Shown: positions 1,657 through 28,219 of the stretch, in pieces | How positions within the stretch are numbered: position 1 is the first letter of the stretch | Layout of the letters: each line of letters starts with the position of its first letter | From: an archaeon | GTDB taxonomy: Archaea > Nanobdellota > Nanobdellia > Pacearchaeales > UBA284 | Length of the DNA stretch: 49,309 nt | NCBI GenBank assembly: GCA_030641225.1 | Contig: DAOWHW010000019.1 | Location: 1 to 49,309 of the forward strand | Direction: 5' to 3' | The notes under the pieces: generated by a model | Databases searched by the model: none | Told to the model about the DNA's origin: nothing | What the model saw: only the letters and a program-made list of their open reading frames with translations | Made by a program: the position numbers and the translations under genes

Positions 1657-3519
1657 TTAAGATAATAGCGTAATTTGTAATTCACTGATGTCAATAAGAC
1701 CATAGATATCACCCAACTCAAATATATTGGTTGGAATATCAAATGAGGATGTTTCAATTCTAATTCTTGATGCGCTGAGCAGTTCAGATTCTGTTACTGA
1801 AAATTCAGTTTTGCCACCACCAAATAATACGTTTGTTAGAGTTTGTTCTGGAACTTCAATATCAAAACATTGCTCTTGCATTGCTCCAAAAATTCCTGCA
1901 ATTCCACCAGCAGGAACTTTAATACATTTTTCAACTTGCTGACTTTCAAGACTAATAGATGATTCTTTGAATAAGCTAACAGAAACTTCGTAGGTTCCTT
2001 CACTTAACTCAATTTGTTTTTGTTCAGGATAATAAATACTTGTACTATAGTCTTCTGAAACAAAGTTAATTATAGCATATTCATCTGATCCCAAATTAAG
2101 ATCTAAATTAAGTGTATGAACGGGATTTAGGAAAATGTTTGCTACAAAAGCTCCTGTGCTTGAAACCTGTATTTTTGTGTTAACATATCCAGGAGCTTTA
2201 GCAATTAGAAAGCCATTATAACATTGTGGTAGAAATGTTTTCAGAGAAGCTTTTCCCTCGCTGATAGTAGTTCTTCCAACATCACAAATCTGGTTAAAGC
2301 ATTTATAACCAATATCAGCTTCTAAAGGATATGTTTGTTCACTATAAGTAAAAATGGTTGCTTGTTGTGTTCTATGCTGACAAATATCAAAGATAACTTC
2401 TTCGCTCTCAACATCAGGAGCTTCTTTTACAGTATTTTTATCAATAATAACAAGAACTGGGAACTGAAAGACATCTTCCTCTTTAATAATCTGGATTAGG
2501 ACTGGAAACTTCAAATCATAGATAAAATGATAAGGGACATAACAAAAGCCTACAGCACTGAGAATTCCAAAACCAGGCTGATTACCCATAGGATCAGCTC
2601 TCATAATACCATTTTCAGAAGGCCATACCTCAAAAACATGTGGCATCTTTCTAGAATAAAGAAAATAAACCTGCTCATCAATTCTTCTACCAACATCAAC
2701 TTCAAAATAACTATGCTCAGCATTACTAAAACTATAATAAGACCCTGAAACTTTTATTGCTCCAATATTGCCTTCAAGAGCTTCATTAATCTCTTTTCTA
2801 AGCTCAGATATAAGCCAGGTTTTAGGTGCACAGCTTAATTCAATACCTGTAACAGGAGCATATAATCTCAAAACATCGATTGCATAATTATCTAAAAACA
2901 AATCTTTCTTTTCAGATTCATATATTGTATTTGCAGTATCATAAAGTTGTCCAAAATTACTCCTAGTTATAACTTTATGATCTATTATTCTGGCTTTTGC
3001 ATCTTCAAATTCAATATTAAGAGGCCACTTAACATTAATATCAATAGAATTTTTCTTTATATCGACATCAATAACTGGACTACCTTCTAATTCTATATCA
3101 TAGTTATTATTAAGAAAATTACTAAGGTCACATTCTTGTATTTTCTCTTCCAGATAATCTGAAAATTGCTGTTCAATTTCTCTAAGTTCTGGTCTCTGCT
3201 CTCTAGCAAGATTATTCCCAGAAACATAAAACCAATAAGGAACTTCCATGCCAATGAAATTCAGACGAGAGGAAAATGGCATATATTCAGAACCTGATTC
3301 AAATTCTGGCAAATCTAAATAGCCAGCTTGCATGCCAGCAATCTTAGATGTATCTTTTACATGTCCAGAAATACATTCTACTAAATAGTCTTCAACAGGT
3401 TGAATTTTAGTAGGAATAGCTACTCTTGTTCTTCTAATATAAATGAAAGAGAAGAGAGCAGCAGCTAACACAACCACAGCTATTATTATAAAAAGAGTAA
3501 CTTGTGCTTTTTTCTGCAT
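1657..3519 (-). CDS. Large (620 aa) secreted or surface protein with a prepilin-like N-terminus
   Basis: The N-terminus MQKKAQVTLFIIIAVVVLAAALF has basic residues, then Ala-Gln, then about 20 hydrophobic residues. This matches the pilin-like genes at 15.7-21.8 kb. The remainder is hydrophilic with scattered Cys. The C-terminal part (GFLIAKAPGYVNTKIQV...) looks like a beta-sandwich. No catalytic motif recognised. GAGG lies upstream of the ATG. Confidence 0.7.
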   Translation of the reverse strand: MQKKAQVTLFIIIAVVVLAAALFSFIYIRRTRVAIPTKIQPVEDYLVECISGHVKDTSKIAGMQAGYLDLPEFESGSEYMPFSSRLNFIGMEVPYWFYVSGNNLAREQRPELREIEQQFSDYLEEKIQECDLSNFLNNNYDIELEGSPVIDVDIKKNSIDINVKWPLNIEFEDAKARIIDHKVITRSNFGQLYDTANTIYESEKKDLFLDNYAIDVLRLYAPVTGIELSCAPKTWLISELRKEINEALEGNIGAIKVSGSYYSFSNAEHSYFEVDVGRRIDEQVYFLYSRKMPHVFEVWPSENGIMRADPMGNQPGFGILSAVGFCYVPYHFIYDLKFPVLIQIIKEEDVFQFPVLVIIDKNTVKEAPDVESEEVIFDICQHRTQQATIFTYSEQTYPLEADIGYKCFNQICDVGRTTISEGKASLKTFLPQCYNGFLIAKAPGYVNTKIQVSSTGAFVANIFLNPVHTLNLDLNLGSDEYAIINFVSEDYSTSIYYPEQKQIELSEGTYEVSVSLFKESSISLESQQVEKCIKVPAGGIAGIFGAMQEQCFDIEVPEQTLTNVLFGGGKTEFSVTESELLSASRIRIETSSFDIPTNIFELGDIYGLIDISELQITLLS

Positions 3520-3615
3520 TTGGGGCGCCTCTTTTTTTCTCTCTTCTCTTTCGATGAAAAGAAAAATGTCTATATAAATCTTATCACAACTATTGGAATA
3601 AAACGCAAAATTTCT

Positions 3616-3969
3616 TTAAAATTTAAATGGTTTTGCAAATTGTCCAACAACTGGTAATGGGACTTTCTTTCCTGTTAGTGAGTTAACCATTCCAATAATC
3701 CAAATTACTAGCATAAATACTAACAATGCTCCAGCTACTACCCAACCAAAAAAAGGTATAATAGCCATTATAGAAGATATTATTGACACTATAATCCAAG
3801 CAATAATTAAGACAATTCCTTGTTTACAATGGTAAATACTAAAATCAGTTCTCTCATTCTTTGTTACTAAAACAATTATTATCCCAACTATTGGAATAAA
3901 ATAACACAGAAATGCGAAGATTTTTTCTGTATTCTCATCAGCTGTCTTTTTTTTCCTCTTTTTTATCAT
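3616..3969 (-). CDS. Small integral membrane protein (DUF4870-like)
   Basis: 117 aa with three hydrophobic segments. The pattern FAFLCYFIPIVGIIIVLV...ERTDFSIYHCKQGIVL resembles the DUF4870 / Tic20-like small membrane family. Confidence 0.5.
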   Translation of the reverse strand: MIKKRKKKTADENTEKIFAFLCYFIPIVGIIIVLVTKNERTDFSIYHCKQGIVLIIAWIIVSIISSIMAIIPFFGWVVAGALLVFMLVIWIIGMVNSLTGKKVPLPVVGQFAKPFKF

Positions 3970-4032
3970 TTTTGTTTTTTATTTATTTTTATTTATTTAA
4001 CTATCTGTTTTTTATTTATATAAGTTATGGAG

Positions 4033-4105
4033 TGGGCCCGACCAGAATTGAACTGGCGATCTTTGCCACGTCAAGGCAATGTCATAACCACTAGACCACG
4101 GGCCC
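4033..4105 (-). tRNA. tRNA-Val (anticodon GAC)
   Basis: The reverse complement GGGCCCGTGGTCTAGTGGTTATGACATTGCCTTGACGTGGCAAAGATCGCCAGTTCAATTCTGGTCGGGCCCA folds as a cloverleaf. The 7-bp acceptor is GGGCCCG/CGGGCCC. The anticodon stem is TTGCC/GGCAA with loop TTGACGT, and the T-loop is TTCAATT. No encoded CCA. Confidence 0.9.
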
Positions 4106-4143
4106 AATAAAAACATAAAGAAAAGAGAATTTAAAAATATTAA

Positions 4144-4539
4144 CTATCCTTTACCAAAAATAAATCCTACGCCGGCAGAAGCACCAGACTCAAGCTCTTC
4201 AATTTTTTTCTTTATTTTTTCATGCTCAGTATTTTCCAAAATCTTAGCTCCAGCATCTAAAAGCGTTTTTTCATTCCTCTCAAAAAAATCAGCGTCAGCA
4301 TCAATATAAAGATAATTGTATTTTTTATCCATGCCAAGTGCTTTGGCATCTCTTATAATATAGCCCTGTCTTTTAAATTCATTAATCTGCCATTCTTTAG
4401 CCTTCTCAACCTTAGTGCCTTTTTTACCAGCCTCTTTTTCTATTTCGACATCTAACTCACCAATTGCTTTTTCAGGGGCCTCAAGAATATTTTTCACACT
4501 AGATAATTTATCTGATGGAATCTCATAAATTTTTATCAT
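4144..4539 (-). CDS. Hypothetical soluble protein, 131 aa
   Basis: Clean ORF whose start overlaps the upstream gene's stop by 4 nt, suggesting operon-style coupling. Charged and helical-looking, with no motif recognised. Confidence 0.5.
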   Translation of the reverse strand: MIKIYEIPSDKLSSVKNILEAPEKAIGELDVEIEKEAGKKGTKVEKAKEWQINEFKRQGYIIRDAKALGMDKKYNYLYIDADADFFERNEKTLLDAGAKILENTEHEKIKKKIEELESGASAGVGFIFGKG

Positions 4540-12810: not shown

Positions 12811-14973
12811 ATGGTAAGAGAAGATCTTCGCGATTTTCTAAAGCAATTTGAAGCTAAAATAGAAAAAGAGTTAAGAGAGGGTATTGAAGAGGAAGCAACA
12901 GATTACTCCCATGAGTATGATAAATTTAGGAAAGAAACTCTCGCTCCTTTAAGTAAGTATGAAAAAGCTTGTAAAAGTATAGGTAGAATTGTTAGGTTAA
13001 GACTCGCACAAAAAGATAGAGAAAGAACTAAAAGGGCTGTAGAAAGAGCTCATCTTGATATTGAACCAGAAGAGGCTGCTGGCCTGGCTATATTTACATT
13101 AGTTGGCACAATAATTTTTGCCGTTTTAATTTCATTTGCAATTTTTTTGTTGATAGGCACTTTTCCTATTCTGATTTTTGCCTTATTATTTCTTGTATCC
13201 TTTTTTCTTTTTTACTTTTTTAAAACTCTACCATCAAGATTAGAACAAAAATGGCGTTTGAAAGCTTCATCACAAATGGTGCCGTGTGTTCTTTACATAG
13301 TTGTATATATGAGACATACCTCTAATTTAGAAAGGGCCATTCATTTTGCTTCCCAACATCTTCAACCCCCACTTTCTCTTGATTTAAAAAAGATATTTTG
13401 GAATGTTGAAACAGCCAAGTATAGCACAATAAAAGATGCTTTAGATGCATATCTTGAAACCTGGCGTGAGAAGAATCTTGAATTTGTAGAATCTTTTCAT
13501 CTTATAGAATCTTCTTTGTATGAACCTGTAGAATCAAGAAGAATAAGGACTCTAGAGAAAGCTCTTGAGGTTATTCTTGATGGTGTTTATGAAAAAATGT
13601 TGCACTACGCTCACGACGTAAAGAGCCCTATTACGAATATCTATATGTTAGGCATAGTTTTACCAACTCTTGGTCTAGCACTATTACCACTTGCTTCAAC
13701 ACTTCTTCAAGGAGCAATAAAGTGGTATCATGTTGCTCTCCTTTTCAATATACTTATTCCATTTCTTGTTTTTTATATGACTAATAATATTCTAAGCAAA
13801 CGTCCTGGTGGCTCCGGTGAAACAGAACTTCTTGAAAGAAATCCTCTTTATAAGAATTATAAATCGAAAAAACCATACATGATTGCAGCCCTCATAGCAT
13901 TGCCTTTCTTGATACTTGGTTTATTACCCTTACTATTACATTATATTCCCTCGACACCAATTGATTATAATTTTGAGCAGCTTGGTATAGGCTTCTTTGG
14001 TAATCAAACAATTTTTGATTTTAAAATTGATCCAGATACTGGTTCAACAGTTGGTCCATTTGGACCTGGTGCTTTGCTACTGAGTGTATTTATTCCATTT
14101 TCTATTGCATTATTCTTCGCTCTAGCTTACAGACTAAAGACAAAGGCTCTTGTTGAAACAAGAAAAGAAACAAAAAGACTTGAAAAAGAATTTGCTTCAA
14201 GTATCTTCCAACTAGGAAATAGACTTGCAGATGGTATCCCTGCTGAAATGGCTTTTGGAAGGGTAGCTACTTCTCTTAGAGGCACTCCAACAGCTGGTTT
14301 TTTTAATATAGTAAATTCAAATATACAACAAGCAGGAATGAGTGTTAAGAGCGCTATTTTCAGCAAAGGTAGAGGAGCTATTAATTATTATCCCTCTGAG
14401 CTAATCAGAACAAGCATGAGAATTCTTATTGAAAGTGTAAAAAAAGGTCTCGGTGTTGCCTCCAGAGCTTTAATGGCTATAAGTGATTATGTTAAAAATA
14501 TTCAGAAAGTGAATGAAAGGCTCAAGGATTTACTGGCAGATATAACAGCTGGAATGAAAAGTAATATGACTTTTTTAGCTCCTCTACTTGCAGCAATTGT
14601 CGTTGGCTTAGCATCAATGATAACTATGATATTAGGAAGACTTGAATTAATGATTACTACAGGAGCATTAACAGGTTCAGAGGTGCTTCCAGGCTTGGGT
14701 CAACTTGGTGGTATTACAGAAATGTTTAGTATTGTAAAGATGATTCCTCCATACTGGCTTCAAATTATTGTTGGAATCTATATTATAGAAATAATTTTTA
14801 TCCTGACAGGAACTCTTGTAACAATTGAGTCTGGTGAAGACCGTCTCGGAGAAAAAGCAGAAATAAGTAAAACACTCTCAACAGGAATGCTTCTTTATAC
14901 TGTTGCTGCTTTTATTGCAATAATTGCCCTTGCAGTACTTGCAGCAGTAGCAGTGGCGGGAATAGCTGTATAA
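12811..14973 (+). CDS. Type IV pilus/archaellum-type platform protein (FlaJ/TadC/PilC-like, two T2SS-F-like domains)
   Basis: 720 aa with about 9 hydrophobic segments. These alternate with two soluble helical domains at about aa 150-275 and 450-580 (e.g. ASSIFQLGNRLADGIPAEMAFGRVA...NIQQAGMSVKSAI...LIRTSMRILIESVKKG). This is the duplicated GspF/PilC/FlaJ arrangement. Confidence 0.65.
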   Translation: MVREDLRDFLKQFEAKIEKELREGIEEEATDYSHEYDKFRKETLAPLSKYEKACKSIGRIVRLRLAQKDRERTKRAVERAHLDIEPEEAAGLAIFTLVGTIIFAVLISFAIFLLIGTFPILIFALLFLVSFFLFYFFKTLPSRLEQKWRLKASSQMVPCVLYIVVYMRHTSNLERAIHFASQHLQPPLSLDLKKIFWNVETAKYSTIKDALDAYLETWREKNLEFVESFHLIESSLYEPVESRRIRTLEKALEVILDGVYEKMLHYAHDVKSPITNIYMLGIVLPTLGLALLPLASTLLQGAIKWYHVALLFNILIPFLVFYMTNNILSKRPGGSGETELLERNPLYKNYKSKKPYMIAALIALPFLILGLLPLLLHYIPSTPIDYNFEQLGIGFFGNQTIFDFKIDPDTGSTVGPFGPGALLLSVFIPFSIALFFALAYRLKTKALVETRKETKRLEKEFASSIFQLGNRLADGIPAEMAFGRVATSLRGTPTAGFFNIVNSNIQQAGMSVKSAIFSKGRGAINYYPSELIRTSMRILIESVKKGLGVASRALMAISDYVKNIQKVNERLKDLLADITAGMKSNMTFLAPLLAAIVVGLASMITMILGRLELMITTGALTGSEVLPGLGQLGGITEMFSIVKMIPPYWLQIIVGIYIIEIIFILTGTLVTIESGEDRLGEKAEISKTLSTGMLLYTVAAFIAIIALAVLAAVAVAGIAV

Positions 14974-15010: not shown

Positions 15011-15679
15011 TTACCAATCAAGATTATAAATTTGTGTAGAATCTTTTCCAAAATAAAGCCATATTGGGCCTTCAAGATAATGTTGGGCAGTCTCATAGTC
15101 ATAGTTAGTGTAGAGATATAATTCTCCTATAGGAAATGGAATTTTTCTTGATATTGCTAAATCACTAGCAGAACTAAGAGTAACTTCATCAACAAGATTT
15201 CCATCTCTTGCGCGCTCTAGTTTATTTGGATTAATTTTATCATACATTTTCAGACCCTCGTAATCTCCTACTTTCATTGACCTTTTTCCATGCTTTATTC
15301 TAAATTTATCCTTAATACCAAAATCACCAGAAGGATCAATTTCTTTTGTTCCAGTTAATGATCTAAATGAACCGTCAAAAACAAGAAATATTCTATAATT
15401 CTTTGTTCCATCTGGATAAGTTGCAAGAAGTAATTTATCAATATAGCTTTTATTTTTCTTAATACCAATATCATCCATTAAGCGCCATCTTTTATTAGAA
15501 AATTCCCATGGATTCCAATCATTCCAATCAATCTCATAACCTTTAAATTTTTTTTCAAATTGATAGGAATCATAATAATTACTTTCTGTTTCTTGAGAAT
15601 TTAGAGAATTTGGTGTTAATAATAAACCACCAGCCACTAGCAAACAACTTGCAAATATTTTTTTAACTAAATTTGACAT
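15011..15679 (-). CDS. Secreted hypothetical protein
   Basis: 222 aa with N-terminal signal-like MSNLVKKIFASCLLVAGGLLLTPNSLNSQ. The mature part is Trp/Tyr-rich. It is on the opposite strand to the surrounding pilus genes. Confidence 0.55.
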   Translation of the reverse strand: MSNLVKKIFASCLLVAGGLLLTPNSLNSQETESNYYDSYQFEKKFKGYEIDWNDWNPWEFSNKRWRLMDDIGIKKNKSYIDKLLLATYPDGTKNYRIFLVFDGSFRSLTGTKEIDPSGDFGIKDKFRIKHGKRSMKVGDYEGLKMYDKINPNKLERARDGNLVDEVTLSSASDLAISRKIPFPIGELYLYTNYDYETAQHYLEGPIWLYFGKDSTQIYNLDW

Positions 15680-15740: not shown

Positions 15741-15896
15741 ATGAAAGATAAAAGGGGTCTTGTCTGGAATGAGATTGCTTGGTGGATATTAGGATTAATC
15801 ATTCTTGCTCTCGTCATCATTTTAATCGTGATTTTACAAAAAAGAGGTATCACTTTACTAGTACAACTTAAAAACTTTTTAAGATTTGGAAGATAA
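15741..15896 (+). CDS. Mini pilin-like protein (51 aa, not in ORF track)
   Basis: My translation is MKDKRGLVWNEIAWWILGLIILALVIILIVILQKRGITLLVQLKNFLRFGR. It has a KRG|L prepilin-type motif plus a hydrophobic helix, and ends 6 nt before the next gene. Confidence 0.55.
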   Translation: MKDKRGLVWNEIAWWILGLIILALVIILIVILQKRGITLLVQLKNFLRFGR

Positions 15897-15902
15897 AATA
15901 AA

Positions 15903-16523
15903 ATGGCTAGAGAAATTATGAGCAATGTTATAAGAGCAATAATTATTGCGGCAGTAATTATAGTTATCGGCGCTTTGGCTGTTATTTTCTTTAATAAAGT
16001 TTTGCCAGTAATAATAGGAGAAGAAATAAGTCTTGAAGATCAACAACAAAATGAAAACAATTTTAATAAACTAATTGAAAATATAGAAAATTGTTATATA
16101 AATGAAGATGATGATTGTTTGTGTGAAGGACTTCCAGATTTTCCAGGAAGTTTTCTCAAAAATTCAAAAATTATTATCAAACAAAAAAATAATGAAGAAA
16201 TCGAAATTAATTGGACATTTAAGAAAAAAACATACAAAAATCAAATTTTGGCTGATATAAAAATTTCTGCCATATATTTTGATACAAAAGAAAAAGTAAC
16301 ATATGGAATCAAAAAAACAATTAATTTTGAAACTGAGCCTCCAACATTTGAACAAATAGGTTTAGAAAAGGGAGTATTTAAAAAATATTATCCAATACTT
16401 ATGACAGGTAAAATTTATAAAAAAGATAATGAAATCTATTTTATAATTAAATATATTGATTATAAAAATCCGACATTAAGAGATCCTGACATAAGAATAT
16501 GTGGTGAAAAGGAAGAAAAATAA
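15903..16523 (+). CDS. N-terminally anchored secreted protein in the pilin cluster (non-canonical signal)
   Basis: 206 aa. MAREIMSNVIRAIIIAAVIIVIGALAVIFF gives a hydrophobic helix without the KKG/KKA motif. The extracellular-looking domain has a Cys cluster (CYINEDDDCLCEG). Confidence 0.6.
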   Translation: MAREIMSNVIRAIIIAAVIIVIGALAVIFFNKVLPVIIGEEISLEDQQQNENNFNKLIENIENCYINEDDDCLCEGLPDFPGSFLKNSKIIIKQKNNEEIEINWTFKKKTYKNQILADIKISAIYFDTKEKVTYGIKKTINFETEPPTFEQIGLEKGVFKKYYPILMTGKIYKKDNEIYFIIKYIDYKNPTLRDPDIRICGEKEEK

Positions 16524-16592
16524 CAAAAGAAAATTTTAAAAACAACTCTTGCTTTTTAAATAAGGAAAATAAAACAAAAGAGGTAATAGATA

Positions 16593-16946
16593 ATGAAAAA
16601 TAAAAAAGCTATAGAGATGAATATTACAACAATTGTTGTAGTGATTCTAGCTCTCCTTGTTCTAGTAATTTTGGCACTATACTTCACAGGTGGGATGCAG
16701 CAATTATGGGAAAGAATTACAGGAGTAGCAGGCACATATGATGAATCAGAGGTGACAAGTGCTAGACAACTTTGTACAACATTTTGTGTTATTGAAGATG
16801 AGCAATCTTTTTGTTCAACACCTTTTAATCTGAGAAAGGGAGAAGAAACTGAAGTAAAGTATTGTGACCAAGACCCTATAAATGCACAAGATTCTCCTAG
16901 TTGTACTAATTTCAAAGATCTTGACTGTAGTCAATATAGAGAATAA
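16593..16946 (+). CDS. Pilin-like protein (class III signal), Cys-rich
   Basis: MKNKKA|IEMNITTIVVVILALLVLVILALYF. The 117-aa protein has six Cys in the mature domain. GAGGT lies upstream. Confidence 0.7.
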   Translation: MKNKKAIEMNITTIVVVILALLVLVILALYFTGGMQQLWERITGVAGTYDESEVTSARQLCTTFCVIEDEQSFCSTPFNLRKGEETEVKYCDQDPINAQDSPSCTNFKDLDCSQYRE

Positions 16947-16960
16947 ACATAAGATAAAAA

Positions 16961-17137
16961 ATGAATAAGAAGGGCGTAGAGCTTTCAATTAATACTATAA
17001 TTATCATAATTCTTGCTATTCTTGTTCTTATAGTTATTTTATTTATTTTTAGTGGTGCTATGAGAGATTTTGCAGCAAATTTATTTGCAAAACTTAAGAC
17101 TGCTCTTGGACTATGGAATTCGACACAAATTCAATAA
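16961..17137 (+). CDS. Short pilin-like protein (58 aa, not in ORF track)
   Basis: My translation is MNKKG|VELSINTIIIIILAILVLIVILFIFSGAMRDFAANLFAKLKTALGLWNSTQIQ. It has the canonical motif with Glu at +2. Confidence 0.65.
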   Translation: MNKKGVELSINTIIIIILAILVLIVILFIFSGAMRDFAANLFAKLKTALGLWNSTQIQ

Positions 17138-17186
17138 AAAAATAAGAAATAAGAAATTTTAAATATTATCTTAATCTTGTTCTTTT

Positions 17187-18218
17187 ATGAATAAAAGAGG
17201 AACACTGATGCTTTTAGAGCAGATAATTAAATTAATAGTTGCAGTTATTGTCATAACTCTTATTATTTATGCTGGTGTTGTTCTCTTTCGAAGTTATTTT
17301 GGTAGTCAAGAAGAACTACAAGCAAAAGGAACTCTTGATGACATTATAATAACATTATCTGAAACAGGAGAAGCAGAAACTTCTGAATTATTTATTATGG
17401 CTCCTTCTGGTTGGAGCATAGTTGCTTTTGATGCTTCACATAATAAGAATGCTGATTTTTATAAGCCAAGTATAAGGCAACCAAATATTGTTTGTCTATG
17501 TAAGAAAAAATGTAAAAGTGAATTTTGTCGTGTAATTGATATGCCTCTAAAACAAGAAGATAAATTAGCAAATATTAAAATTAGAATAATGAAGTTGTGG
17601 ATTAATAATCAAAATACATATTATAAAATAATCAAGGCTAGTGATGCAAAAATTCAAGACAGTCTTTCAGAAGAAAATAGATTAAAAGGTTCTTTATACA
17701 CAGCTTCATCAACAGAACTTGATAAATGGCTTCAAGAAAAAGAGTCTCTTTTAGCTGGGATTAATGAATGTATTATTGATGCTTCAGAACAGACAGGAAT
17801 TCCTTCACAAATAATTCTCGGGATAGCTATCCATGAAAGTAATTGGGGCAAGAGTGATCTTGCTATGGAATGTAATAATTTATATGGCATAAAACAGCAA
17901 GGTCCTGAAGGAATATGTAAAATGTCAACTCAAGAGCAGGAAGGTGATAAATTCATAACAATAAAGGCAGAATTTGCAAAATATAAAACTCAGTGTCAAT
18001 CTGTATATCATTTTGTAGAAACAATATCAAAATCCTTCTATTATGTTGAAGCAATGGAACATACTGATGATATAGAAAAAATGATTTATGCTATTCATGG
18101 CTGTTCAGGACCTTATGCCGGACAAAACTGTATTTATGCTACAGATTTGGAATGGGCTAATAAAGTTTTAGAAATTATAGATGAAATAGAAGAGTCAGAA
18201 GAATCAAAAAATGTTTAA
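17187..18218 (+). CDS. Pilin-like N-terminus fused to a GH73-type glucosaminidase (peptidoglycan hydrolase) domain
   Basis: The N-terminus is MNKRG|TLMLLEQIIKLIVAVIVITLIIYAGVVLF. The C-terminal segment GIPSQIILGIAIHESNWGKSDLAMECNNLYGIKQ...TQEQEGDKFITIKAEFAKYKT matches the FlgJ/LytD-type glucosaminidase signature (ESGWG..S.LA...NNLFGIK ... F..Y). Confidence 0.75.
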   Translation: MNKRGTLMLLEQIIKLIVAVIVITLIIYAGVVLFRSYFGSQEELQAKGTLDDIIITLSETGEAETSELFIMAPSGWSIVAFDASHNKNADFYKPSIRQPNIVCLCKKKCKSEFCRVIDMPLKQEDKLANIKIRIMKLWINNQNTYYKIIKASDAKIQDSLSEENRLKGSLYTASSTELDKWLQEKESLLAGINECIIDASEQTGIPSQIILGIAIHESNWGKSDLAMECNNLYGIKQQGPEGICKMSTQEQEGDKFITIKAEFAKYKTQCQSVYHFVETISKSFYYVEAMEHTDDIEKMIYAIHGCSGPYAGQNCIYATDLEWANKVLEIIDEIEESEESKNV

Positions 18219-18336
18219 AAAAAATAAAAAAGGGCTTACAACAGAAATTCTAATCAAAATTATTTTATATATAATTCTCTTTGCACTAATTGCCAGTGCG
18301 ATTACTTATCTTCTTAAAAGATATGGTGTAATATAA
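18211..18336 (+). CDS. Mini pilin-like protein (41 aa, not in ORF track)
   Basis: My translation is MFKKNKKG|LTTEILIKIILYIILFALIASAITYLLKRYGVI. The ATG overlaps the stop of the GH73 fusion gene, suggesting translational coupling. Confidence 0.5.
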   Translation: MFKKNKKGLTTEILIKIILYIILFALIASAITYLLKRYGVI

Positions 18337-18338
18337 TT

Positions 18339-18689
18339 TTATTTTTTCTTTCTTATCTTAATAACTTTTTTCTTGTTTATATCTACTATAACATTATACT
18401 TAAACTTCTCATAAGTTTCATCGTTCTCTATTCTAAGAGCTAGTTCAAATTCTTTATTAGGTATAAAATCTGTTATGCGTGTCTGCCAAATATATTTTTC
18501 TTGCCCGTCATAAGCTCTCCCCCAAGTATGATTCACAGACTTAAGACCATATTTACGCATGGCTTTGTTAAGGTCTTTTTCTATATTATTTATTACCTCA
18601 GTAGGTACGCCTCCAGAACTACAACCAAAAATTACTAGAGCCAATCCTGTCACAATTCCATTTCTTATCTTATTCTTTAAATTTTTCAT
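18339..18689 (-). CDS. Putative lipoprotein
   Basis: 116 aa. MKNLKNKIRNGIVTGLALVIFGCSSGG is a lipobox-like signal with Cys. It lies on the opposite strand inside the pilin run. Confidence 0.55.
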   Translation of the reverse strand: MKNLKNKIRNGIVTGLALVIFGCSSGGVPTEVINNIEKDLNKAMRKYGLKSVNHTWGRAYDGQEKYIWQTRITDFIPNKEFELALRIENDETYEKFKYNVIVDINKKKVIKIRKKK

Positions 18690-18735
18690 TTCTCTGGGGA
18701 GATAAGTTTATTAATAAATCTTTCTGATTAATAAT

Positions 18736-19623
18736 ATGAACAAAAAGGGGGCAACAGTTCAGGCAATAATTATCTCAATTATAATTATTCTATTAAGCGG
18801 AGCAATAATCTTTTTGTTTTTTAGATTTCTTCCATATAAAGAAATGATTGATAAGGAGGCATGTCATCAATCTGTTATATTGAGAAGTCAGTCAATTGCT
18901 GGTTTTGAACCAGGAAAACATTTAGTGCCATTAAATTGTAAAACTCAAGAAATAGAAATTAGCTCAACAAACGAACAATTTATAGCAAGAGAAATTTCTA
19001 ATGCCATGTATGATTGTTGGTGGATGTTAGGAGAAGGCAAATATGATTTTTTTTCTGATCCAAGCTGGCAAGAAATTGTTATTGAATTTGGAACAGCACA
19101 AGGAACAGCAAAAGCCAATTGTGTTGTCTGTAGCATAATAAAATTTACAGAAAATGTGCAAGATAAAAACCTTAGAATAGATGTTGCAGAATTTATGGAA
19201 TCAACAAAAATACCGACAAAAAATATTACTTACTTAGAATATTTGGCAGGACAGGAAGATGTAAGACTTCCTACAGGTCTAGAAATAGAAAAAATTGACA
19301 CGAGTCAAGAATATGCAATAGTTTTTATAGGTATAAGAGGAGGCAATTTTTGGTCAGGACTAATAAGTGGTGTTGGTGGTGGTGCTATAGTTGGTGCCAT
19401 AACTGGATTAGCTTTTGGTGGACCACATCCATATTTGATAGCTGCAACAACAGTTGCTGGAGATGTTCTTGGAAAACTCAATGCCATAAAAGAATTTCAA
19501 AATGCAAGAATAGCTTCTGTAAGATGTGATGGAGAAAAAAAAGGCTGCTTTATTCTTTATCTTATTCCTTTAACAGTAAAAGATTTAAGCATGACTTGCC
19601 AGAATATAGAAAGTATTTCTTAG
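18736..19623 (+). CDS. Pilin-like protein with a C-terminal glycine-zipper hydrophobic segment
   Basis: The N-terminus is MNKKG|ATVQAIIISIIIILLSGAIIFLFF. The mature part has eight Cys. Residues about 202-246 read GGNFWSGLISGVGGGAIVGAITGLAFGGPHPYLIAATTVAGDVLG. Confidence 0.7.
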   Translation: MNKKGATVQAIIISIIIILLSGAIIFLFFRFLPYKEMIDKEACHQSVILRSQSIAGFEPGKHLVPLNCKTQEIEISSTNEQFIAREISNAMYDCWWMLGEGKYDFFSDPSWQEIVIEFGTAQGTAKANCVVCSIIKFTENVQDKNLRIDVAEFMESTKIPTKNITYLEYLAGQEDVRLPTGLEIEKIDTSQEYAIVFIGIRGGNFWSGLISGVGGGAIVGAITGLAFGGPHPYLIAATTVAGDVLGKLNAIKEFQNARIASVRCDGEKKGCFILYLIPLTVKDLSMTCQNIESIS

Positions 19624-19661
19624 TAAAATCTAATAAGATTTATTAATGCTTTTTTCTTAAA

Positions 19662-20012
19662 ATGATTATGCTAAATAAAAGGGGTTTTGAGCTTAGCTGG
19701 GAGTTTATTTTTAGTCTTTTGTTTATTATAGCAATCATAGTCATGATGAGTATCTGGGTGGGTGGACAATCATCTGGATTTGGGCTTCAAAAACAAATTT
19801 TAGCTAAAGAAATCTGTATTTTAATAGGATCAGCAGATCCAAGCACAGAAATTATAATTGAACATGATAAAAAATTAACTATAGAAAAAAAAGATTCTGG
19901 AATTGTCGTAAAAAAAGGCGAATTTGATAGGGGATATTTTTATGATTGTTATCTTCGAGATAATATTGAATTTTCAAAAAAAGATGATTTCACAATTATC
20001 AAAATAAATTAA
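19662..20012 (+). CDS. Pilin-like protein (class III signal)
   Basis: MIMLNKRG|FELSWEFIFSLLFIIAIIVMM; 116 aa. Confidence 0.7.
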   Translation: MIMLNKRGFELSWEFIFSLLFIIAIIVMMSIWVGGQSSGFGLQKQILAKEICILIGSADPSTEIIIEHDKKLTIEKKDSGIVVKKGEFDRGYFYDCYLRDNIEFSKKDDFTIIKIN

Positions 20013-20055
20013 AAAAATAGATATAAAAGATAAAAAAAATAGGTGAAAAGATAAA

Positions 20056-20511
20056 ATGGGGATGAAAAATAAAAAAGCTCAGCTTGGACATGCAATGACT
20101 TGGCTTCATAAATTTTTTATTCTTGTTCTTGTTATTGGTGGTGTAGTTGCTATAGTCGCAGCGCATTATTCACAACAATTTGATATTCGTGATCAAGAAA
20201 TGAACATTATAGCACGAAAACTTATTGAATGTATTGCTCCAAATGGACACGTAACAAGATTCGACAAAGAGGTTATTGAAGATTGTTTTCCTTTTGATGA
20301 AAAAGAGTTTTTTATTAATATTAGTTTAGAAAATGACTATATTTCTATTGGAGATGGTTTTCTTGAAATACTATGTCAAGCAAAAGAAGAAGGTACGAAA
20401 GCCAAGTTTTACCCAGCTTGTCTAAAAGAAAATTATTATGTTTTCAAGGAAGATAAAGAAACTAACTTAAAGATTTTTATAGCAATCAAAAAATTTGAGA
20501 AAAATTTATAA
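20056..20511 (+). CDS. Pilin-like protein (class III signal)
   Basis: MGMKNKKA|QLGHAMTWLHKFFILVLVIGGVVAIVAA; 151 aa with four Cys. AGGTGA lies upstream. Confidence 0.7.
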   Translation: MGMKNKKAQLGHAMTWLHKFFILVLVIGGVVAIVAAHYSQQFDIRDQEMNIIARKLIECIAPNGHVTRFDKEVIEDCFPFDEKEFFINISLENDYISIGDGFLEILCQAKEEGTKAKFYPACLKENYYVFKEDKETNLKIFIAIKKFEKNL

Positions 20512-20512
20512 A

Positions 20513-21031
20513 ATGAAACTAAAAAATAAAAAAGGTCAGATAGGAGAGCTCATTTCAGATACAGCAGCATTAATTGTTATTGCTTTTCTTCTATTAATAT
20601 TTTTTATTATATCATCTAGTCTATGGGGATTTCCAAAACCAAATATTGAAAAACAAGCTATAGAAGACTCGCTTTATAATCAAGAACATGTTTCACTTAA
20701 TAACTGGCTAACAAGAAAAGTTGAAGTTAATGTTGGTAGTACAATTCAAGAAATGACTATAGCTGAATTAATAAGACTTTCAGAACTTGACCATAGTTAC
20801 AAGGGTCAGTTAGAAAAAATGGAAGATATGGCTTTTGATAAGATTTATGATACTTACAAAGTAAGGATTATGCTAAGTAAAGATGCTTTTGAACCAGGTT
20901 ATGAAATAATTCCTATTGGAGTTGTTGGTGGTATTTTCACAATTATGCCTACAGTAAGGATTATTAAAAGTCCTTTATTTTATGTTCCCTCAAATGAAAC
21001 AATTGCTGTAAATATGGAAATTCAAAAATAA
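20513..21031 (+). CDS. Pilin-like protein (class III signal)
   Basis: I trimmed the track ORF (20495) to the internal ATG just after the upstream stop. This gives MKLKNKKG|QIGELISDTAALIVIAFLLLIFFII. Confidence 0.7.
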   Translation: MKLKNKKGQIGELISDTAALIVIAFLLLIFFIISSSLWGFPKPNIEKQAIEDSLYNQEHVSLNNWLTRKVEVNVGSTIQEMTIAELIRLSELDHSYKGQLEKMEDMAFDKIYDTYKVRIMLSKDAFEPGYEIIPIGVVGGIFTIMPTVRIIKSPLFYVPSNETIAVNMEIQK

Positions 21032-21032
21032 A

Positions 21033-21845
21033 ATGATAAATAAACAAAATAAAAAAGCGAGTATATTTGCTCTAGGAATGGTTCTAGGAGTAATTATACT
21101 TATGGGTATCGCATGGTATGGTTTTGCAGCAACTAACAAAAATATTTATAAAGGGATTAAAATAATTGATCCGCTCAATTATAAAAATCTAAAAGATAAT
21201 TTTGCTCTTTATCTTAATGAGTCAGCAAAACTTTCGGCAAGCCAATCTTTTTATGAAATCGCAAAGGAAACTGCCATAGATAAAGAAAACCCAGGATGTA
21301 ATATATATTCAGGAAAAGATTATATTATCTGGTCTCAGGAGTGTAAACCAGAACAAAAAATTATAGAAGAGATGTTTATTAAATACTATAATAAAAGTTT
21401 CAATATACTGTTACAAGAATATCCTTTAATTGATACAGAAAAAATAGAATATAACCATATTTTAGAAGAAAATCAAATTAATTCATTTGCGTCTTTAGAA
21501 AAAATCAAAACAACAAAAAAGGCAGTATTTGCCACATATAATGTAAGTTATGAATTTGATCCTTCTACAAATCTCGATATTAAAAAACAAGAGATTCATT
21601 TAGAAGACTTTATCAGTATTTATCAAAAAACAACAAACCAAATAAAAATATGTAAAGAAGAAGAAAATCAGTTAGATTGTATTAAAAAAAATCTTGAGTT
21701 TGAAAGATGGATTTTTTACGTAGATAAAGAAGGTTCATTTTTTATTTTTGAGTTTAAAACCAAAAAATATTTCTTTTTTGAAAATGTTGATGGAAGAGAA
21801 AGATTTAACCCTCTAAAATTAAATTTTGCAATTATTGAAGAATAA
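21033..21845 (+). CDS. Pilin-like protein (class III signal), 270 aa
   Basis: MINKQNKKA|SIFALGMVLGVIILMGIAWYGF, with paired Cys (PGC...QEC; KIC...LDC). The start is 1 nt after the previous stop. Confidence 0.7.
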   Translation: MINKQNKKASIFALGMVLGVIILMGIAWYGFAATNKNIYKGIKIIDPLNYKNLKDNFALYLNESAKLSASQSFYEIAKETAIDKENPGCNIYSGKDYIIWSQECKPEQKIIEEMFIKYYNKSFNILLQEYPLIDTEKIEYNHILEENQINSFASLEKIKTTKKAVFATYNVSYEFDPSTNLDIKKQEIHLEDFISIYQKTTNQIKICKEEENQLDCIKKNLEFERWIFYVDKEGSFFIFEFKTKKYFFFENVDGRERFNPLKLNFAIIEE

Positions 21846-23040: not shown

Positions 23041-24021
23041 ATGCCTAAAATTAAAAAAGATAAAATAGAAAATAAGAAAATTTCACTTACAGATCTGCCT
23101 GGAATTGGTCAGACAACAGCATCAAAACTTGATGGGGCAGGTTATAGTGACTTGATGAGTATTGCTGTAATGACTCCTCCTAATTTAAGTTCTGTGGCTG
23201 ATATTAGTGAAAGTGTTGCAAGAAAGGCTATAGCTGCAGCAAGAAAAATGTTAAGGCTTGAATTTGAAGATGCAACACAATACTTAAAAAAAAGAGAAGA
23301 AGTTTTTAAGATTACTACTGGTAGTAAAAATCTAAATAGGTTGCTTGGTGGGGGAGTTGAAACAAGAGCAATGACTGAAACTTTCGGTGCTTATGGTTCA
23401 GGAAAAAGCCAGATTGCTCATGTAATTGCTGTGACAACACAACTTCCTAGAGAAAAAGGTGGAGCAAATGCTAAAGTAGTATGGATTGATACAGAAGGAA
23501 CATTTAGACCAGAAAGAATTAAACAGATTGCCGAACATTTTGGTTTAGATTATATGACAGTATTAAAAAATATTTTTGTGGCTCGCGCTTTTAATAGTGA
23601 TCATCAAATACTTCTTGTAGATAAGGTTATCGATATAATTAAGAAAGGTGAACCAATAAAAGTTATAATTGTTGATTCAATCACAGCACATTTTAGAGCA
23701 GAATTTACAGGAAGAGGACAGCTTGCAGATAGACAACAAAGAATAAATAAACATTTACATAATCTTCTAAGACTTGCTGAAGCACATAATTTAGCAATTT
23801 ATATAACAAATCAAGTCATGGCCCGCCCAGATGTCATGTTTGGAGATCCAACACAAGCTATAGGAGGCCATATTGTTGGTCATGCATCAACATATAGAAT
23901 TTATTTAAGAAGAGGAAAAAAAGGAAGTAGGGTAGCTAAAATGATAGATTCACCAAATCTTCCAGAATCTGAATGTATCTTTTTTATAACAGCAAATGGC
24001 ATAGAAGATGAGGAAAAATAG
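23041..24021 (+). CDS. radA: DNA repair and recombination protein RadA
   Basis: N-terminal HhH (LTDLPGIGQTTASKL), Walker A GAYGSGKSQ, Walker B VIIVDSI, and ITNQV....GGH. Confidence 0.92.
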   Translation: MPKIKKDKIENKKISLTDLPGIGQTTASKLDGAGYSDLMSIAVMTPPNLSSVADISESVARKAIAAARKMLRLEFEDATQYLKKREEVFKITTGSKNLNRLLGGGVETRAMTETFGAYGSGKSQIAHVIAVTTQLPREKGGANAKVVWIDTEGTFRPERIKQIAEHFGLDYMTVLKNIFVARAFNSDHQILLVDKVIDIIKKGEPIKVIIVDSITAHFRAEFTGRGQLADRQQRINKHLHNLLRLAEAHNLAIYITNQVMARPDVMFGDPTQAIGGHIVGHASTYRIYLRRGKKGSRVAKMIDSPNLPESECIFFITANGIEDEEK

Positions 24022-25918: not shown

Positions 25919-28219
25919 ATGATATTCAAGCCAAAAACAAAATTATATGGGTATGAAATTACAAGAGAAGCTGGCCAGGATGTTATGTATATTAATTATC
26001 TTGGTGCCCCGTATGTACCTAGTATTGCTGATTCTCCTATTGTTATGGCAAGAGTTATTGACTATTTGATTGAATCTCCAAATGTTTCGAGAGTTGTTTT
26101 TGTTCAGCAAAGAAATTATAGTTATGATTTTAGACAGGTTGCCTTACTTATTGAAGTAGGTCAACTCTATGTTCATCTAATTAAACAAGAAAGAATTCTT
26201 GAAATGTCAACATTAGAGCCAGGAAGATGTCACATGCATCTACCTCAAAGATATGATACAATGCGTTATCTTTTTCTTACACTACTAAAACAAGATCCAA
26301 TCGGTTGTTATGTTGAGACAAGAAGAATATTAAGAGAAGAAAGAATTATTACGAAAAAAATTCCAAAAAGTGCAAAAAGAGAGCTGTCTTGTCAAGAACA
26401 ATATATTAAACTTCTTTCAAAAATTGTCTTAATGCTAGAAAAATTGTCTATTATAAAACTACTAAAAGGAAAAACTCTTGGCTATAAACTTGGTTATAGA
26501 AATCTATATAGGGATATATTCAGGCCAGAAATAGTTCCTAACTTTACTTTTACGAGATTAATGGCTTCTTTCCCACCAGAATCTGAAATTATTGAACAAT
26601 ATGAAATAGGCCCTTCACATGATAAAAGTACTGTAACAATATTAAAAATTCCAGGAAGAACAAAATATGTTTATCATATTATGGCTCCTGAATTCACTCT
26701 TTCAGAGAGCCTTCAAACTCTTGTAAATCTTGCAAGAAATGTTTTACTTGAACATAAACCAAAAGCAGAGGAATTTGTGGATCCAGATAGAATAAGACAG
26801 GTTTTTTTTAATATAGCTAGAGATCTTCTAAGAGAATTGGCTACAACAAAAAAAATATCTTTGACTTATAGACAAACGAATAAGCTGGCTACAATCCTTA
26901 TTAGACATACAATTGGTTTTGGTATGATTGAGGTTCTTCTTCAAGATGAAAGGCTTCAAGATATTATGATTAATGCTCCTGTTGGGATTGTTCCTATTTT
27001 TATTAGACATCAGGATTTTGATGAATGCGATACAAATATTATCCCAAGTCAAGAAGATGCTGAATCATGGGCAGCTAAATTTAGAATGATCTCTGGCCGT
27101 CCATTAGATGAAGCTAACCCAGTTCTTGATACTGAGCTAATTATAGGAACATCAAGAGCAAGAGTTTCAATAATTCAAAAACCATTAAGTCCTTATGGTC
27201 TTGCTTATGCTCTAAGACGTCATAGAGAAAAACCTTGGACATTGCCTTTATTTATTCAAAATAAGATGATAAATCCAATTTCCGCAGGGCTTCTTTCATT
27301 CTTAATTGATGGCAGTAGAACTATGCTTATAGCAGGAACTCGGTCAAGTGGTAAAACGTCTATGTTAGGGGCTTGCATGCTAGAAATTATGTCCCGTTAT
27401 AGAATGATTGTTATTGAGGGAACAATGGAGTTGCCAGTAATATCTTTCAGAAACCTTGGTTATGATATTTTAAGAATGAAAGTCAGAGAGGCTCTTGCAA
27501 GAGAAACTACAGAGTTAAGCGCAGCAGAGGGAATCCGTACTTCCTTACGTTTGGGAGATTCAAGTCTAATTGTTGGTGAAGTTAGAAGTGAAGAAGCATT
27601 AGCATTATATGAAGCCATGCGTATTGGAGCATTAGCAAATGTAGTAGCAGGAACAATTCATGGAGCCTCCCCATATGGAGTTTTTGATCGTGTTGTTCAT
27701 GATTTAAAGGTGCCAGCAACAAGTTTTAAAGCCACTGATGTAATTGTTATTTGTAATCCTATAAAGAGTGCTGATGGCCTACATCGCTGGAGAAGAGTTT
27801 TACAAATTACTGAAGTAAAAAAGCACTGGAGAGAAGATCCAGATGCTGAAGCTGGTTTTCTTGATCTTCTTAAATATGATGTGAGAAAAGATCAACTTGT
27901 CCCAACAGATGATCTAATAAATGGTGAGAGTGAAATTTTAAAAGATATAGCAGGCCAGGTTAAAGGTTGGGCAGGTAGCTGGGATGATGTATGGGACAAT
28001 ATTCTACTTAGATCAAAGATAAAAGAAACTATAGTTAAGGTTGCTGAAAAACTAAAAAAACCAGATCTTCTAGAAGCAGCATGGGTTATTAAATATAACA
28101 ATATGTTTCATGAGATAAGTGACAAAGTAAGACAAGATATTGGTGTGCCAGAAGGTAAAAGGGTTTTTAAGGAATGGAAAAATTGGCTCAAAGCAGAGCT
28201 AAGAAAGAAAAGATTATAA
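25919..28219 (+). CDS. Type II/IV secretion-family ATPase (FlaI/VirB11/GspE-like)
   Basis: 766 aa with Walker A AGTRSSGKTS, Walker B-like SLIVGEVRSEEA and His-box-like VAGTIHGASP. The N-terminal region is long (about 450 aa) and there is a C-terminal extension of about 150 aa. Confidence 0.8.
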   Translation: MIFKPKTKLYGYEITREAGQDVMYINYLGAPYVPSIADSPIVMARVIDYLIESPNVSRVVFVQQRNYSYDFRQVALLIEVGQLYVHLIKQERILEMSTLEPGRCHMHLPQRYDTMRYLFLTLLKQDPIGCYVETRRILREERIITKKIPKSAKRELSCQEQYIKLLSKIVLMLEKLSIIKLLKGKTLGYKLGYRNLYRDIFRPEIVPNFTFTRLMASFPPESEIIEQYEIGPSHDKSTVTILKIPGRTKYVYHIMAPEFTLSESLQTLVNLARNVLLEHKPKAEEFVDPDRIRQVFFNIARDLLRELATTKKISLTYRQTNKLATILIRHTIGFGMIEVLLQDERLQDIMINAPVGIVPIFIRHQDFDECDTNIIPSQEDAESWAAKFRMISGRPLDEANPVLDTELIIGTSRARVSIIQKPLSPYGLAYALRRHREKPWTLPLFIQNKMINPISAGLLSFLIDGSRTMLIAGTRSSGKTSMLGACMLEIMSRYRMIVIEGTMELPVISFRNLGYDILRMKVREALARETTELSAAEGIRTSLRLGDSSLIVGEVRSEEALALYEAMRIGALANVVAGTIHGASPYGVFDRVVHDLKVPATSFKATDVIVICNPIKSADGLHRWRRVLQITEVKKHWREDPDAEAGFLDLLKYDVRKDQLVPTDDLINGESEILKDIAGQVKGWAGSWDDVWDNILLRSKIKETIVKVAEKLKKPDLLEAAWVIKYNNMFHEISDKVRQDIGVPEGKRVFKEWKNWLKAELRKKRL

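Follow-up and report, generated by a model that had tools for sequence, protein, structure and literature searches.

Why would an archaeon encode a bacterial-type wall-cutting enzyme on what looks like a pilin stem, among genes that look like those of a pilus? The question is raised by one gene, of 343 amino acids (aa), in a 49,309-nucleotide (nt) contig (DAOWHW010000019.1 of assembly GCA_030641225.1) from a Pacearchaeales archaeon; we call this whole stretch of DNA the window. An earlier interpretation made from the letters alone (the sequence-only reading) had described the product as a prepilin-type N-terminus fused to a GH73 peptidoglycan glucosaminidase. It overlooked what matters most: several C-terminal domains are interchangeable here, and GH73 is one of them. 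We place the protein in an archaeal family of modular-pilin-like carriers whose murein hydrolase modules can be exchanged, a variant of already known kinds. Below, the N-terminal part common to the family is called the carrier.

The open reading frame (ORF) exists with the MNKRG start described for it, and the translation of 17187..18218 on the forward strand is identical to the protein that the sequence-only reading quoted. The argument needs these parts of the gene:

17187..18218, + strand: carrier-GH73 fusion gene, 343 aa, stop codon included
17187..17201, + strand: basic leader MNKRG, with a putative prepilin-peptidase cleavage site after G5
17202..17363, + strand: N-terminal alpha-helix, aa 6-59, the first half of which (aa ~6-38) is the sole hydrophobic segment
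17364..17645, + strand: carrier beta domain, aa 60-153, predicted local distance difference test (pLDDT) score 86
17646..17711, + strand: acidic linker (…DSLSEENRLK…), the junction where the C-terminal domains of relatives diverge
17772..18191, + strand: GH73 / PF01832 glucosaminidase domain, aa 196-335, within a structural domain of ~aa 162-341
17835..17837, + strand: E217 codon, predicted general acid (StFlgJ E184 equivalent)
17934..17936, + strand: E250 codon, predicted beta-hairpin catalytic Glu (StFlgJ E223 equivalent; Auto E156 is the comparable residue)
17982..17984, + strand: Y266 codon, the Tyr of the GH73 motif, invariant

The GH73 assignment held in the profile search that had been proposed as its check. 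A Pfam scan places PF01832 (Glucosaminidase, CAZy GH73) on aa 196-335 (nt 17772-18191) at E=6.3e-22; the score of 79 bits is well above the gathering score of 30.2, and the match covers profile positions 4-122 of 123. By sequence, the closest solved relative is the hydrolase domain of Salmonella FlgJ, 5dn4 (phmmer, E=4.6e-8). In that alignment E217, in the HESNWG motif (nt 17832-17849), pairs with FlgJ E184 (LESGWG), and E250 (STQEQEGD) pairs with FlgJ E223, which agrees with the catalytic Glu and the second acidic residue that had been anticipated. FlgJ E184 is the general acid/base and E223 a beta-hairpin Glu required for activity; the second carboxylate is missing from some GH73 enzymes (PMC4752226). 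E217 is invariant across the carrier-GH73 family, and Y266, in the F-x-x-Y motif that had also been pointed out, is invariant across 11 family members. Two homologues, P0008 and P0009, retain E217 and have no E250-equivalent hairpin Glu; either they use a hairpin-independent GH73 mechanism or their activity is lowered.

An AlphaFold model built from 11 family sequences (mean pLDDT 81) gives the C-terminal 180 residues a lysozyme-like fold, with strands at 242-252 and 255-264. Foldseek matches the model to Auto (3fi7, E=7.5e-10), AtlA (7qfu, target-normalised template modelling score 0.78), FlgJ, LytB and TM0633, so the full-length structure prediction that had been suggested returns a GH73 fold. 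Sequence and structural model together show the domain to be intact as a predicted enzyme. A 99%-identical protein, P0001, exists. The GH73 part holds six cysteines, additional to those of the beta domain, and because all ten cysteines of the protein are conserved in position, an extracellular, disulfide-bonded protein fits. FlgJ is among the best NCBIfam models (E=1.8e-12). Orthology to FlgJ (TIGR02541) was rejected: the score is 47.7 bits against a cutoff of 193, the match spans the hydrolase part only and the rod-binding N-domain is absent. The JGI label 'FlgJ' on relatives is a misnomer.

The other end of the protein reads MNKRG|TLMLLEQIIKLIVAVIVITLIIYAG, a short basic leader ending in G/A followed by ~20 hydrophobic residues. 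The Kyte-Doolittle maximum (3.1) falls at aa 16-34, and there is no second hydrophobic segment in the 343-aa protein. AlphaFold predicts helices at 4-38 and 41-59, about aa 3-59 overall, with a kink at 39-40. The beta domain that follows has the family invariants P73, W76, D82, N88, C103, C105, C109, C114, P120 and L121. Model confidence is lowest at linker residues 154-157 (pLDDT <50), next to the acidic SLSEENRLK. The triplet [KR][KR]G is present in 14/14 family members although leader lengths differ, and [KRN][KR][GA] in 145/164 scaffold relatives. Because [KR][KR]G is kept while the length of the leader varies, the leader is probably a processing site. We call the carrier pilin-like on its motif, its predicted architecture and its genomic context only.

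What the carrier bears varies. All related sequences are metagenomic. In a first homologue search, ten GH73 relatives matched over the full length (44-50% identity), and four proteins matched over the N-terminal ~165 residues only (41-54% identity) and ended in an SLT lytic transglycosylase domain; SLT-bearing relatives of the carrier are 344-402 aa long. When a profile was made from the N-terminal 160 residues and searched exhaustively with HMMER, 1333 cluster representatives matched at E≤1e-3, 228 of them at E≤1e-10. The matched region is always N-terminal, and the proteins fall into two size classes, ~150-180 aa and ~280-460 aa. We ran a Pfam scan on the 91 long proteins among the best 150 carrier matches, with these results:

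SLT: 18 of 91 long carrier proteins
Glucosaminidase (GH73): 5 of 91
Amidase_2: 4 of 91
VanY / Peptidase_M15: 4 of 91
3D: 4 of 91
Phage_lysozyme2: 1 of 91

Every Pfam-recognised C-terminal family in this set acts on or binds murein. About 55 of the 91 have extra domains without Pfam annotation. The two largest groups with such domains, the P0076 group (14 proteins) and the P0073 group (7 proteins), have conserved C-terminal domains with additional conserved cysteines. These domains match nothing in Pfam, and profiles of the two groups found nothing credible among Protein Data Bank (PDB) sequences; the domains may be further wall-active or adhesive modules.

The carrier proteins are not paralogues dispersed over the genomes; they stand at one genomic position. 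The carrier slot is syntenic in 12 loci, in the conserved order membrane protein, ~51, ~200, ~120 and ~58 aa, carrier, ~300, ~116, ~153, ~165 and ~265 aa, RPA, RadA; the last two genes are adjacent in all loci with enough sequence. The slot is filled as follows:

GH73: the window, L008, L012 and L013
SLT: L001, L002, L004 and L005
Amidase_2: L007
VanY: L006
3D: L011, additional to the 12, a 1.9-kb contig in which the visible order is only 132 aa, 60 aa, enzyme
Carrier alone (157 aa, no enzyme): L009 and L010

The carrier ends in '…YYEI(S/T)K…' at a sharp boundary, and an LSEEE-type linker is common to the GH73 and SLT versions. A scaffold-only member, P0018, stops exactly at the linker boundary. 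As far as sequence can tell, the conserved trait appears to be murein-cutting activity on the carrier, with GH73 as only one way to supply it.

Domain type does not follow relatedness. Identities to the window in two of the loci are:

RadA: 85% in L001 (SLT), 74% in L008 (GH73)
Membrane protein: 81% in L001, 75% in L008
58-aa pilin: 81% in L001, 59% in L008
Carrier: 55% in L001, 45% in L008
GH73 domain: no match in L001 (SLT), 53% in L008

The window's nearest relative among the examined loci, L001, thus bears SLT, and the more distant L008 bears GH73. A tree of the carrier beta domain interleaves GH73, SLT and scaffold-only members, and groups the window protein with SLT-bearing P0012, P0013 and P0016 and scaffold-only P0018; it is a neighbour-joining tree without support values and is indicative only. 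Because domain type is incongruent with both genome relatedness and the scaffold tree, the comparison suggests that the C-terminal module was repeatedly replaced or recombined at the linker.

A horizontally acquired lytic module had been put forward as the second of two possible explanations for the gene. It is compatible with the data but is no alternative, since the GH73 domain, although bacterial-type, is fixed as a fusion. Across 11 full-length GH73 versions that are 42-56% mutually identical, E217, Y266 and ~50 other positions are invariant. No donor of the domain was found by tblastn against phages, where identity is at most 36%. An indexed homologue search with the C-terminal 184 aa alone gave no matches, and one with a 40-sequence carrier alignment gave only 2 proteins.

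The domains that share the slot narrow the substrate. GH73 enzymes cleave the bond between N-acetylglucosamine (GlcNAc) and N-acetylmuramic acid (MurNAc) in GlcNAc-beta-1,4-MurNAc. SLT enzymes cleave MurNAc-beta-1,4-GlcNAc to give 1,6-anhydro-MurNAc, Amidase_2 cleaves the MurNAc-L-Ala amide bond, and the substrates of VanY/M15 enzymes are stem peptides with D-Ala. Pseudomurein contains N-acetyl-talosaminuronic acid, linked beta-1,3, and has neither MurNAc nor D-amino acids. Since only murein contains all the bonds cut by the domains of the slot, the common substrate would be bacterial murein. Published work likewise stresses that pseudomurein is chemically distinct from murein (PMC12352652). 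It is also established that archaea are not known to make murein (PMC12352652, PMC8204110). The existence of scaffold-only versions indicates that the enzyme is not needed for filament assembly. Because archaea are not known to make murein and the enzyme is dispensable in this way, established chemistry makes the wall of another organism, a bacterium, the most likely target. The sequence-only reading had proposed an enzyme aimed at a bacterial or a pseudomurein-bearing partner or prey; the bacterial half of this proposal is favoured by SLT, Amidase_2, VanY and 3D in the same slot, and the pseudomurein half is unlikely for reasons given below.

The setting of the gene is that of a putative filament locus, with these neighbours:

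12811..14973, + strand: 720-aa polytopic membrane protein, candidate assembly platform, 56-81% identical across loci
15741..17137, + strand: four upstream pilin-like genes (51, 206, 117 and 58 aa)
18736..21845, + strand: five downstream pilin-like genes (295, 116, 151, 172/178 and 270 aa), with orthologues in every related locus
25919..28219, + strand: FlaI/TadA-family type IV filament assembly ATPase, 766 aa (PF00437, E=2.7e-10)

With the 343-aa gene between them, the pilin-like genes form a run of ten co-directional genes at 15741-21845. A basic leader ending in G/A and followed by a hydrophobic stretch occurs in 10/10 of these and in 2/57 other window ORFs (Fisher p=2.7e-10), so the likeness to the neighbouring N-termini that had been remarked on is real. 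Across seven loci the leader motif is retained in 9/10 ortholog groups, frequently with Gln at +1. Orthologues of the 206-aa protein (15903-16523, + strand) have only a hydrophobic N-terminus, without the basic-G/A leader, and this protein may be another kind of component. The 58-aa protein is a candidate major pilin and has a weak Flp1_like match (E=0.023). In two loci, orthologues of the 117-aa gene begin KKG|QLSIETIII and KRG|AISIEMIII and have sub-threshold matches to Class_IIIsignal (PF04021), at E=0.0012 (19.1 bits vs 23.7) and E=0.028. The best models for the 766-aa ATPase are FlaI (NF058587, E=5e-36), TadA (E=5e-32) and the bindosome ATPase BasE (E=1e-15). In locus L007 a T2SSE ATPase, the membrane protein and the pilin-like genes directly adjoin one another. 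From its conservation and its adjacency to the ATPase we infer a platform role for the 720-aa membrane protein. We read the cluster as a type IV filament locus.

The host is a DPANN archaeon of the Pacearchaeota type. The window encodes the archaeal markers RadA (TIGR02236, E=3e-140), RPA, Gins51 and ribosomal proteins L1 and L10P, which together with the FlaI-type ATPase bear out the archaeal setting assumed earlier. SRP54, FtsY, FtsZ and ThiC are also present. GC content is ~30% throughout, and the region of the carrier-GH73 gene matches its surroundings. Relatives of the protein with a named source all come from 'Candidatus Pacearchaeota archaeon', and one related locus carries the label Woesearchaeota. 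The scan of window ORFs revealed no murein synthesis gene, and 49 kb is too small to settle that point. Two related loci differ from the window outside the slot. The RadA of L008 (15208-17673) is an 821-aa protein with an intein (Intein_splicing and LAGLIDADG_3), and the RadA of the window (23041-24021, 326 aa) is intein-free. L001 has an IS240-type transposase and an N6/N4 methyltransferase with an MwoI-like gene at 1659-4423, between SRP54 and the pilus locus, which are absent from the window.

Our preferred answer, given with moderate confidence, is a modular minor pilin: the protein would belong to a type IV filament of Pacearchaeota type and present a murein hydrolase to bacteria; we infer the cleavage, incorporation, activity and target that this entails. 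The pre-protein would enter the membrane by its N-terminal hydrophobic helix, and a prepilin peptidase would remove the MNKRG leader. The helix and the cysteine-rich beta domain would then join a filament made of the products of the neighbouring pilin-like genes, with the 720-aa membrane protein and the FlaI-type ATPase. By analogy with bulky bacterial modular pilins, the carrier would most probably sit at the filament tip, where the flexible acidic linker would keep the GH73 domain pointing outwards. At the point of contact, the predicted activity would hydrolyse the GlcNAc-beta-1,4-MurNAc bond of the bacterial wall. A thinned or opened wall of a bacterial host or prey could let the small archaeon attach, reach the membrane or free nutrients.

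A number of observations weigh against the modular pilin. The carrier has no match to Pfam Class_IIIsignal (PF04021), and no N-terminal model of pilins or archaellins recognises it. In the AlphaFold models the helix is followed by the beta domain, and a carrier-only model compared with the PDB by Foldseek finds nothing significant (best E=0.8), for which reason we do not claim a pilin fold. When the carrier profile is compared with PDB sequences, alpha-1 helices of PilA from Geobacter and others come top at a non-significant E=0.1-0.5. No prepilin peptidase (A24) was found among the ~40 window ORFs scanned. The ATPase of the window lies 7.7 kb away, past RPA and RadA. The 720-aa membrane protein matches nothing in Pfam, NCBIfam or PDB, whether queried alone or as a profile of six sequences, and shows no similarity to PilC, FlaJ or T2SSF. 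The carrier tree, as said, is indicative only. No bacterial hosts of cultivated DPANN archaea are known, all hosts being archaeal (PMC11291902). Of the pilin-type stalk that the sequence-only reading saw, the motif and the cluster context are borne out, and its pilin nature stays putative.

The lack of a curated pilin profile or fold match for the carrier would also suit a surface-anchored ectoenzyme that is no filament subunit, its helix being a signal anchor or a bindosome-like class-III display signal. We think this unlikely, with enough in its favour to be taken seriously. A hydrophobic N-terminus alone cannot tell a signal anchor from a class-III signal, and the ATPase of the window matches BasE as well as FlaI. 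Class-III signals on archaeal non-pilin surface proteins are known (PMC3047682). Such an enzyme would break down murein on bacteria that are attached or dead, to help attachment or to scavenge amino sugars and amino acids, a role that we doubt to the same degree; peptidoglycan scavenging has been proposed for Pacearchaeota (PMC11537232). Mildly against an ectoenzyme, the gene keeps a fixed place among nine genes with like N-termini, in an order conserved in every examined locus, and a scaffold-only carrier in the same slot suits a structural subunit better. The [KR][KR]G that is conserved despite varying leader length also speaks for processing and against a plain anchor. That the enzyme is instead a self-directed autolysin, making space for the filament in the producer's own wall like FlgJ, VirB1 and the specialised lytic transglycosylases, is very unlikely. 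In bacteria, filament and secretion loci typically include murein hydrolases (FlgJ, PMC4752226), and FlgJ is among the best models for this protein. Against this stand the low score on the FlgJ model with its missing rod-binding domain, and the absence of known murein synthesis in archaea (PMC12352652, PMC8204110). The enzyme-free carriers in the slot of related genomes mean that the activity is unnecessary for assembly, and the scanned part of the window, small as it is, adds no murein synthesis gene.

There is a very slim chance that the enzyme attacks pseudomurein instead, on a methanogen host from Methanobacteriales or Methanopyrales. An association of Woesearchaeota with methanogens has been proposed. 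The hosts of all cultivated DPANN archaea are archaeal (PMC11291902), which counts on the same side. By established chemistry, however, the SLT, Amidase_2 and VanY/M15 domains of the same slot require murein. The known pseudomurein lysins PeiW and PeiP, moreover, are endoisopeptidases and not glycosidases. We give scarcely any credence to a recently transferred bacterial or phage lysin fragment that is decaying or neutral and has no function of its own. The domain is bacterial-type, and many bacterial-type genes have been noted in DPANN genomes (PMC8204110). The invariance of E217, Y266 and ~50 positions among such diverged GH73 versions does not suit a relic, nor does a GC content equal to that of the rest of the window. 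The closest phage GH73 is no nearer than the identity given above, and the slot has repeatedly been filled by other intact murein hydrolases.

The proposed modular pilin has counterparts elsewhere. In bacterial modular pilins such as PilB and PilC of Streptococcus sanguinis (Raynaud et al. 2021), a short linker joins a bulky functional module to a small pilin module at the N-terminus (PMC8179133). The archaeal proteins are like them in having varied grafted modules, a presumed tip position and genes among minor pilin genes, which here are pilin-like ones (PMC8179133). The bacterial proteins are defined by IPR012902 and chiefly bear adhesin or lectin modules, a single peptidase type also being mentioned (PMC8179133). 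Unlike them, the archaeal carrier has no database signature, and its Pfam-recognised modules are all murein-related and are swapped in one syntenic slot. The main text of PMC8179133 mentions neither archaea nor peptidoglycan hydrolases. The N-terminus in the window reads G|TLMLLE, with Glu at +6, and the family consensus is KKGxxLLxE; both depart from the bacterial N-methylation motif G|(F/M)TL(I/L)E (Glu at +5), and Pfam and NCBIfam give no N-methylation-domain match. The 343-aa protein is not a member of the IPR012902 signature family, though we see it as working like a modular pilin.

Archaeal enzymes of similar chemistry have been described. Woldo and Danwoldo of Halogranum salarium (Strock et al. 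2025) are archaeal peptidoglycan hydrolases that kill bacteria (PMC12352652). The 343-aa protein resembles them as an archaeal, bacterial-type murein hydrolase that is exported (here a prediction), and Danwoldo also has PF01832 (PMC12352652). Woldo and Danwoldo are soluble, Sec/Tat-secreted and equipped with peptidoglycan-binding domains, whereas the 343-aa protein has no binding domain, a pilin-like N-terminus and a place in a pilus locus. Archaeal peptidoglycan hydrolases are reported to be prominent in Nanoarchaeota (PMC12352652). The survey across archaea in that study required a peptidoglycan-binding domain and scored Sec/Tat signals only, and the carrier family would escape it for this reason. 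Large extracellular SLT/GH23 proteins are known from Pacearchaeota and Woesearchaeota (fam00969; Castelle et al. 2021, PMC8204110; Vigneron et al. 2022, PMC9723730). They share with the carrier family the lineages, a murein-lytic domain and the suggestion of possible bacterial hosts or prey (PMC8204110, PMC9723730). The fam00969 proteins are up to 3000 aa long, have SLT only and have no pilus link, whereas carrier proteins are 300-400 aa long with at least five kinds of enzyme domain. The 343-aa protein, small and GH73-bearing, falls outside fam00969, which comprises very large proteins with SLT.

Genetic and physical coupling of a hydrolase to a filament or injection machine, the physical part being predicted here, is shared with FlgJ, with the specialised lytic transglycosylases of type III secretion systems, type IV secretion systems and type IV pili, with the type VI secretion system effector Tge2 and with phage virion lysins. 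FlgJ and Tge2 (4kt3) are among the structural matches of the GH73 domain. Exchange of a lytic module at a fixed position also resembles phage tail lysins. However, FlgJ/VirB1-type enzymes cut the producer's own wall, effectors of type VI secretion systems are cargo and not filament subunits, and none of these hydrolases is pilin-fused or archaeal. The Sulfolobus bindosome (PMC3047682) is alike in that an archaeal class-III-type N-terminus displays a functional non-pilin domain, here on the carrier a predicted one, at the cell surface and the ATPase is FlaI/PilB-like. Its members are substrate-binding (sugar-binding) uptake proteins, not enzymes, with no swappable C-termini and in a different lineage.

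Other features of the window can be noted beside the locus. A 620-aa ORF at 1657-3519 (- strand), 12 kb from the cluster, has no Pfam match and starts MQKKA|QVTLFIIIAVVVLAAALFSF, a class-III-like leader with Gln at +1; its product may be another large protein of the filament or the cell surface. Between the 720-aa membrane gene and the pilin-like genes, a 222-aa protein at 15011-15679 (- strand) has a signal-peptide-like N-terminus and the Trp-rich stretch DWNDWNPWEF, and homologues stand at the equivalent place in L004, L005 and L008 (26-38% identity). The sequence TTTAAATA at 17158-17165, ~25 nt upstream of the ATG at 17187, has the look of an archaeal TATA box. If it is one, the carrier-GH73 gene may have a dedicated promoter and a leaderless mRNA; the match may also be chance in a genome of 70% A+T. 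A 116-aa lipoprotein-like ORF (…LALVIFGCSSGG…) at 18339-18689 (- strand) is convergent with the GH73 gene. As a GH73-linked partner or immunity gene it was rejected, having a weak homologue in L008 only and none in L012, L013 or the SLT loci. The first 46 nt of the ThiC ORF as listed (start 28174) lie within the ATPase ORF (end 28219), and the true ThiC start may be further downstream.

A bolder form of the modular pilin can be put forward tentatively, at a strength that falls short of our preferred answer. In Pacearchaeota and close relatives, a major uncultivated DPANN lineage, the filament may end in a cassette-like 'drill head', one pilin carrier with swappable murein hydrolases that are recombined between lineages in an arms-race-like manner. 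Its domains, just as tentatively, would between them attack both kinds of bond in the glycan strand, the amide of the stem peptide and peptides containing D-Ala. If such a tip exists, these archaea would physically breach bacterial walls, and their hosts or prey would be bacteria. Such a pilus-borne enzymatic device, acting on contact and across domains as a weapon or for docking, would be of a kind undescribed for type IV filaments. In the literature we searched, no paper ties DPANN pili or pilins to murein hydrolases, which is not proof of absence.

Pacearchaeota and Woesearchaeota are among the most abundant uncultivated archaea. The carrier defines a class of enzymes that is missed by archaeal antibacterial screens needing Sec/Tat signals and peptidoglycan-binding domains. 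It would extend the modular-pilin principle to archaea and to wall-degrading enzymatic modules, with module exchange at a fixed locus. The wall specificity of the domains could narrow the range of target bacteria, and the carrier could serve as a marker for the filament in cryo-electron tomography or metaproteomic data. A carrier on which the kind of murein cutter is the variable part would give these lineages testable genomic evidence for contact action on bacterial walls.

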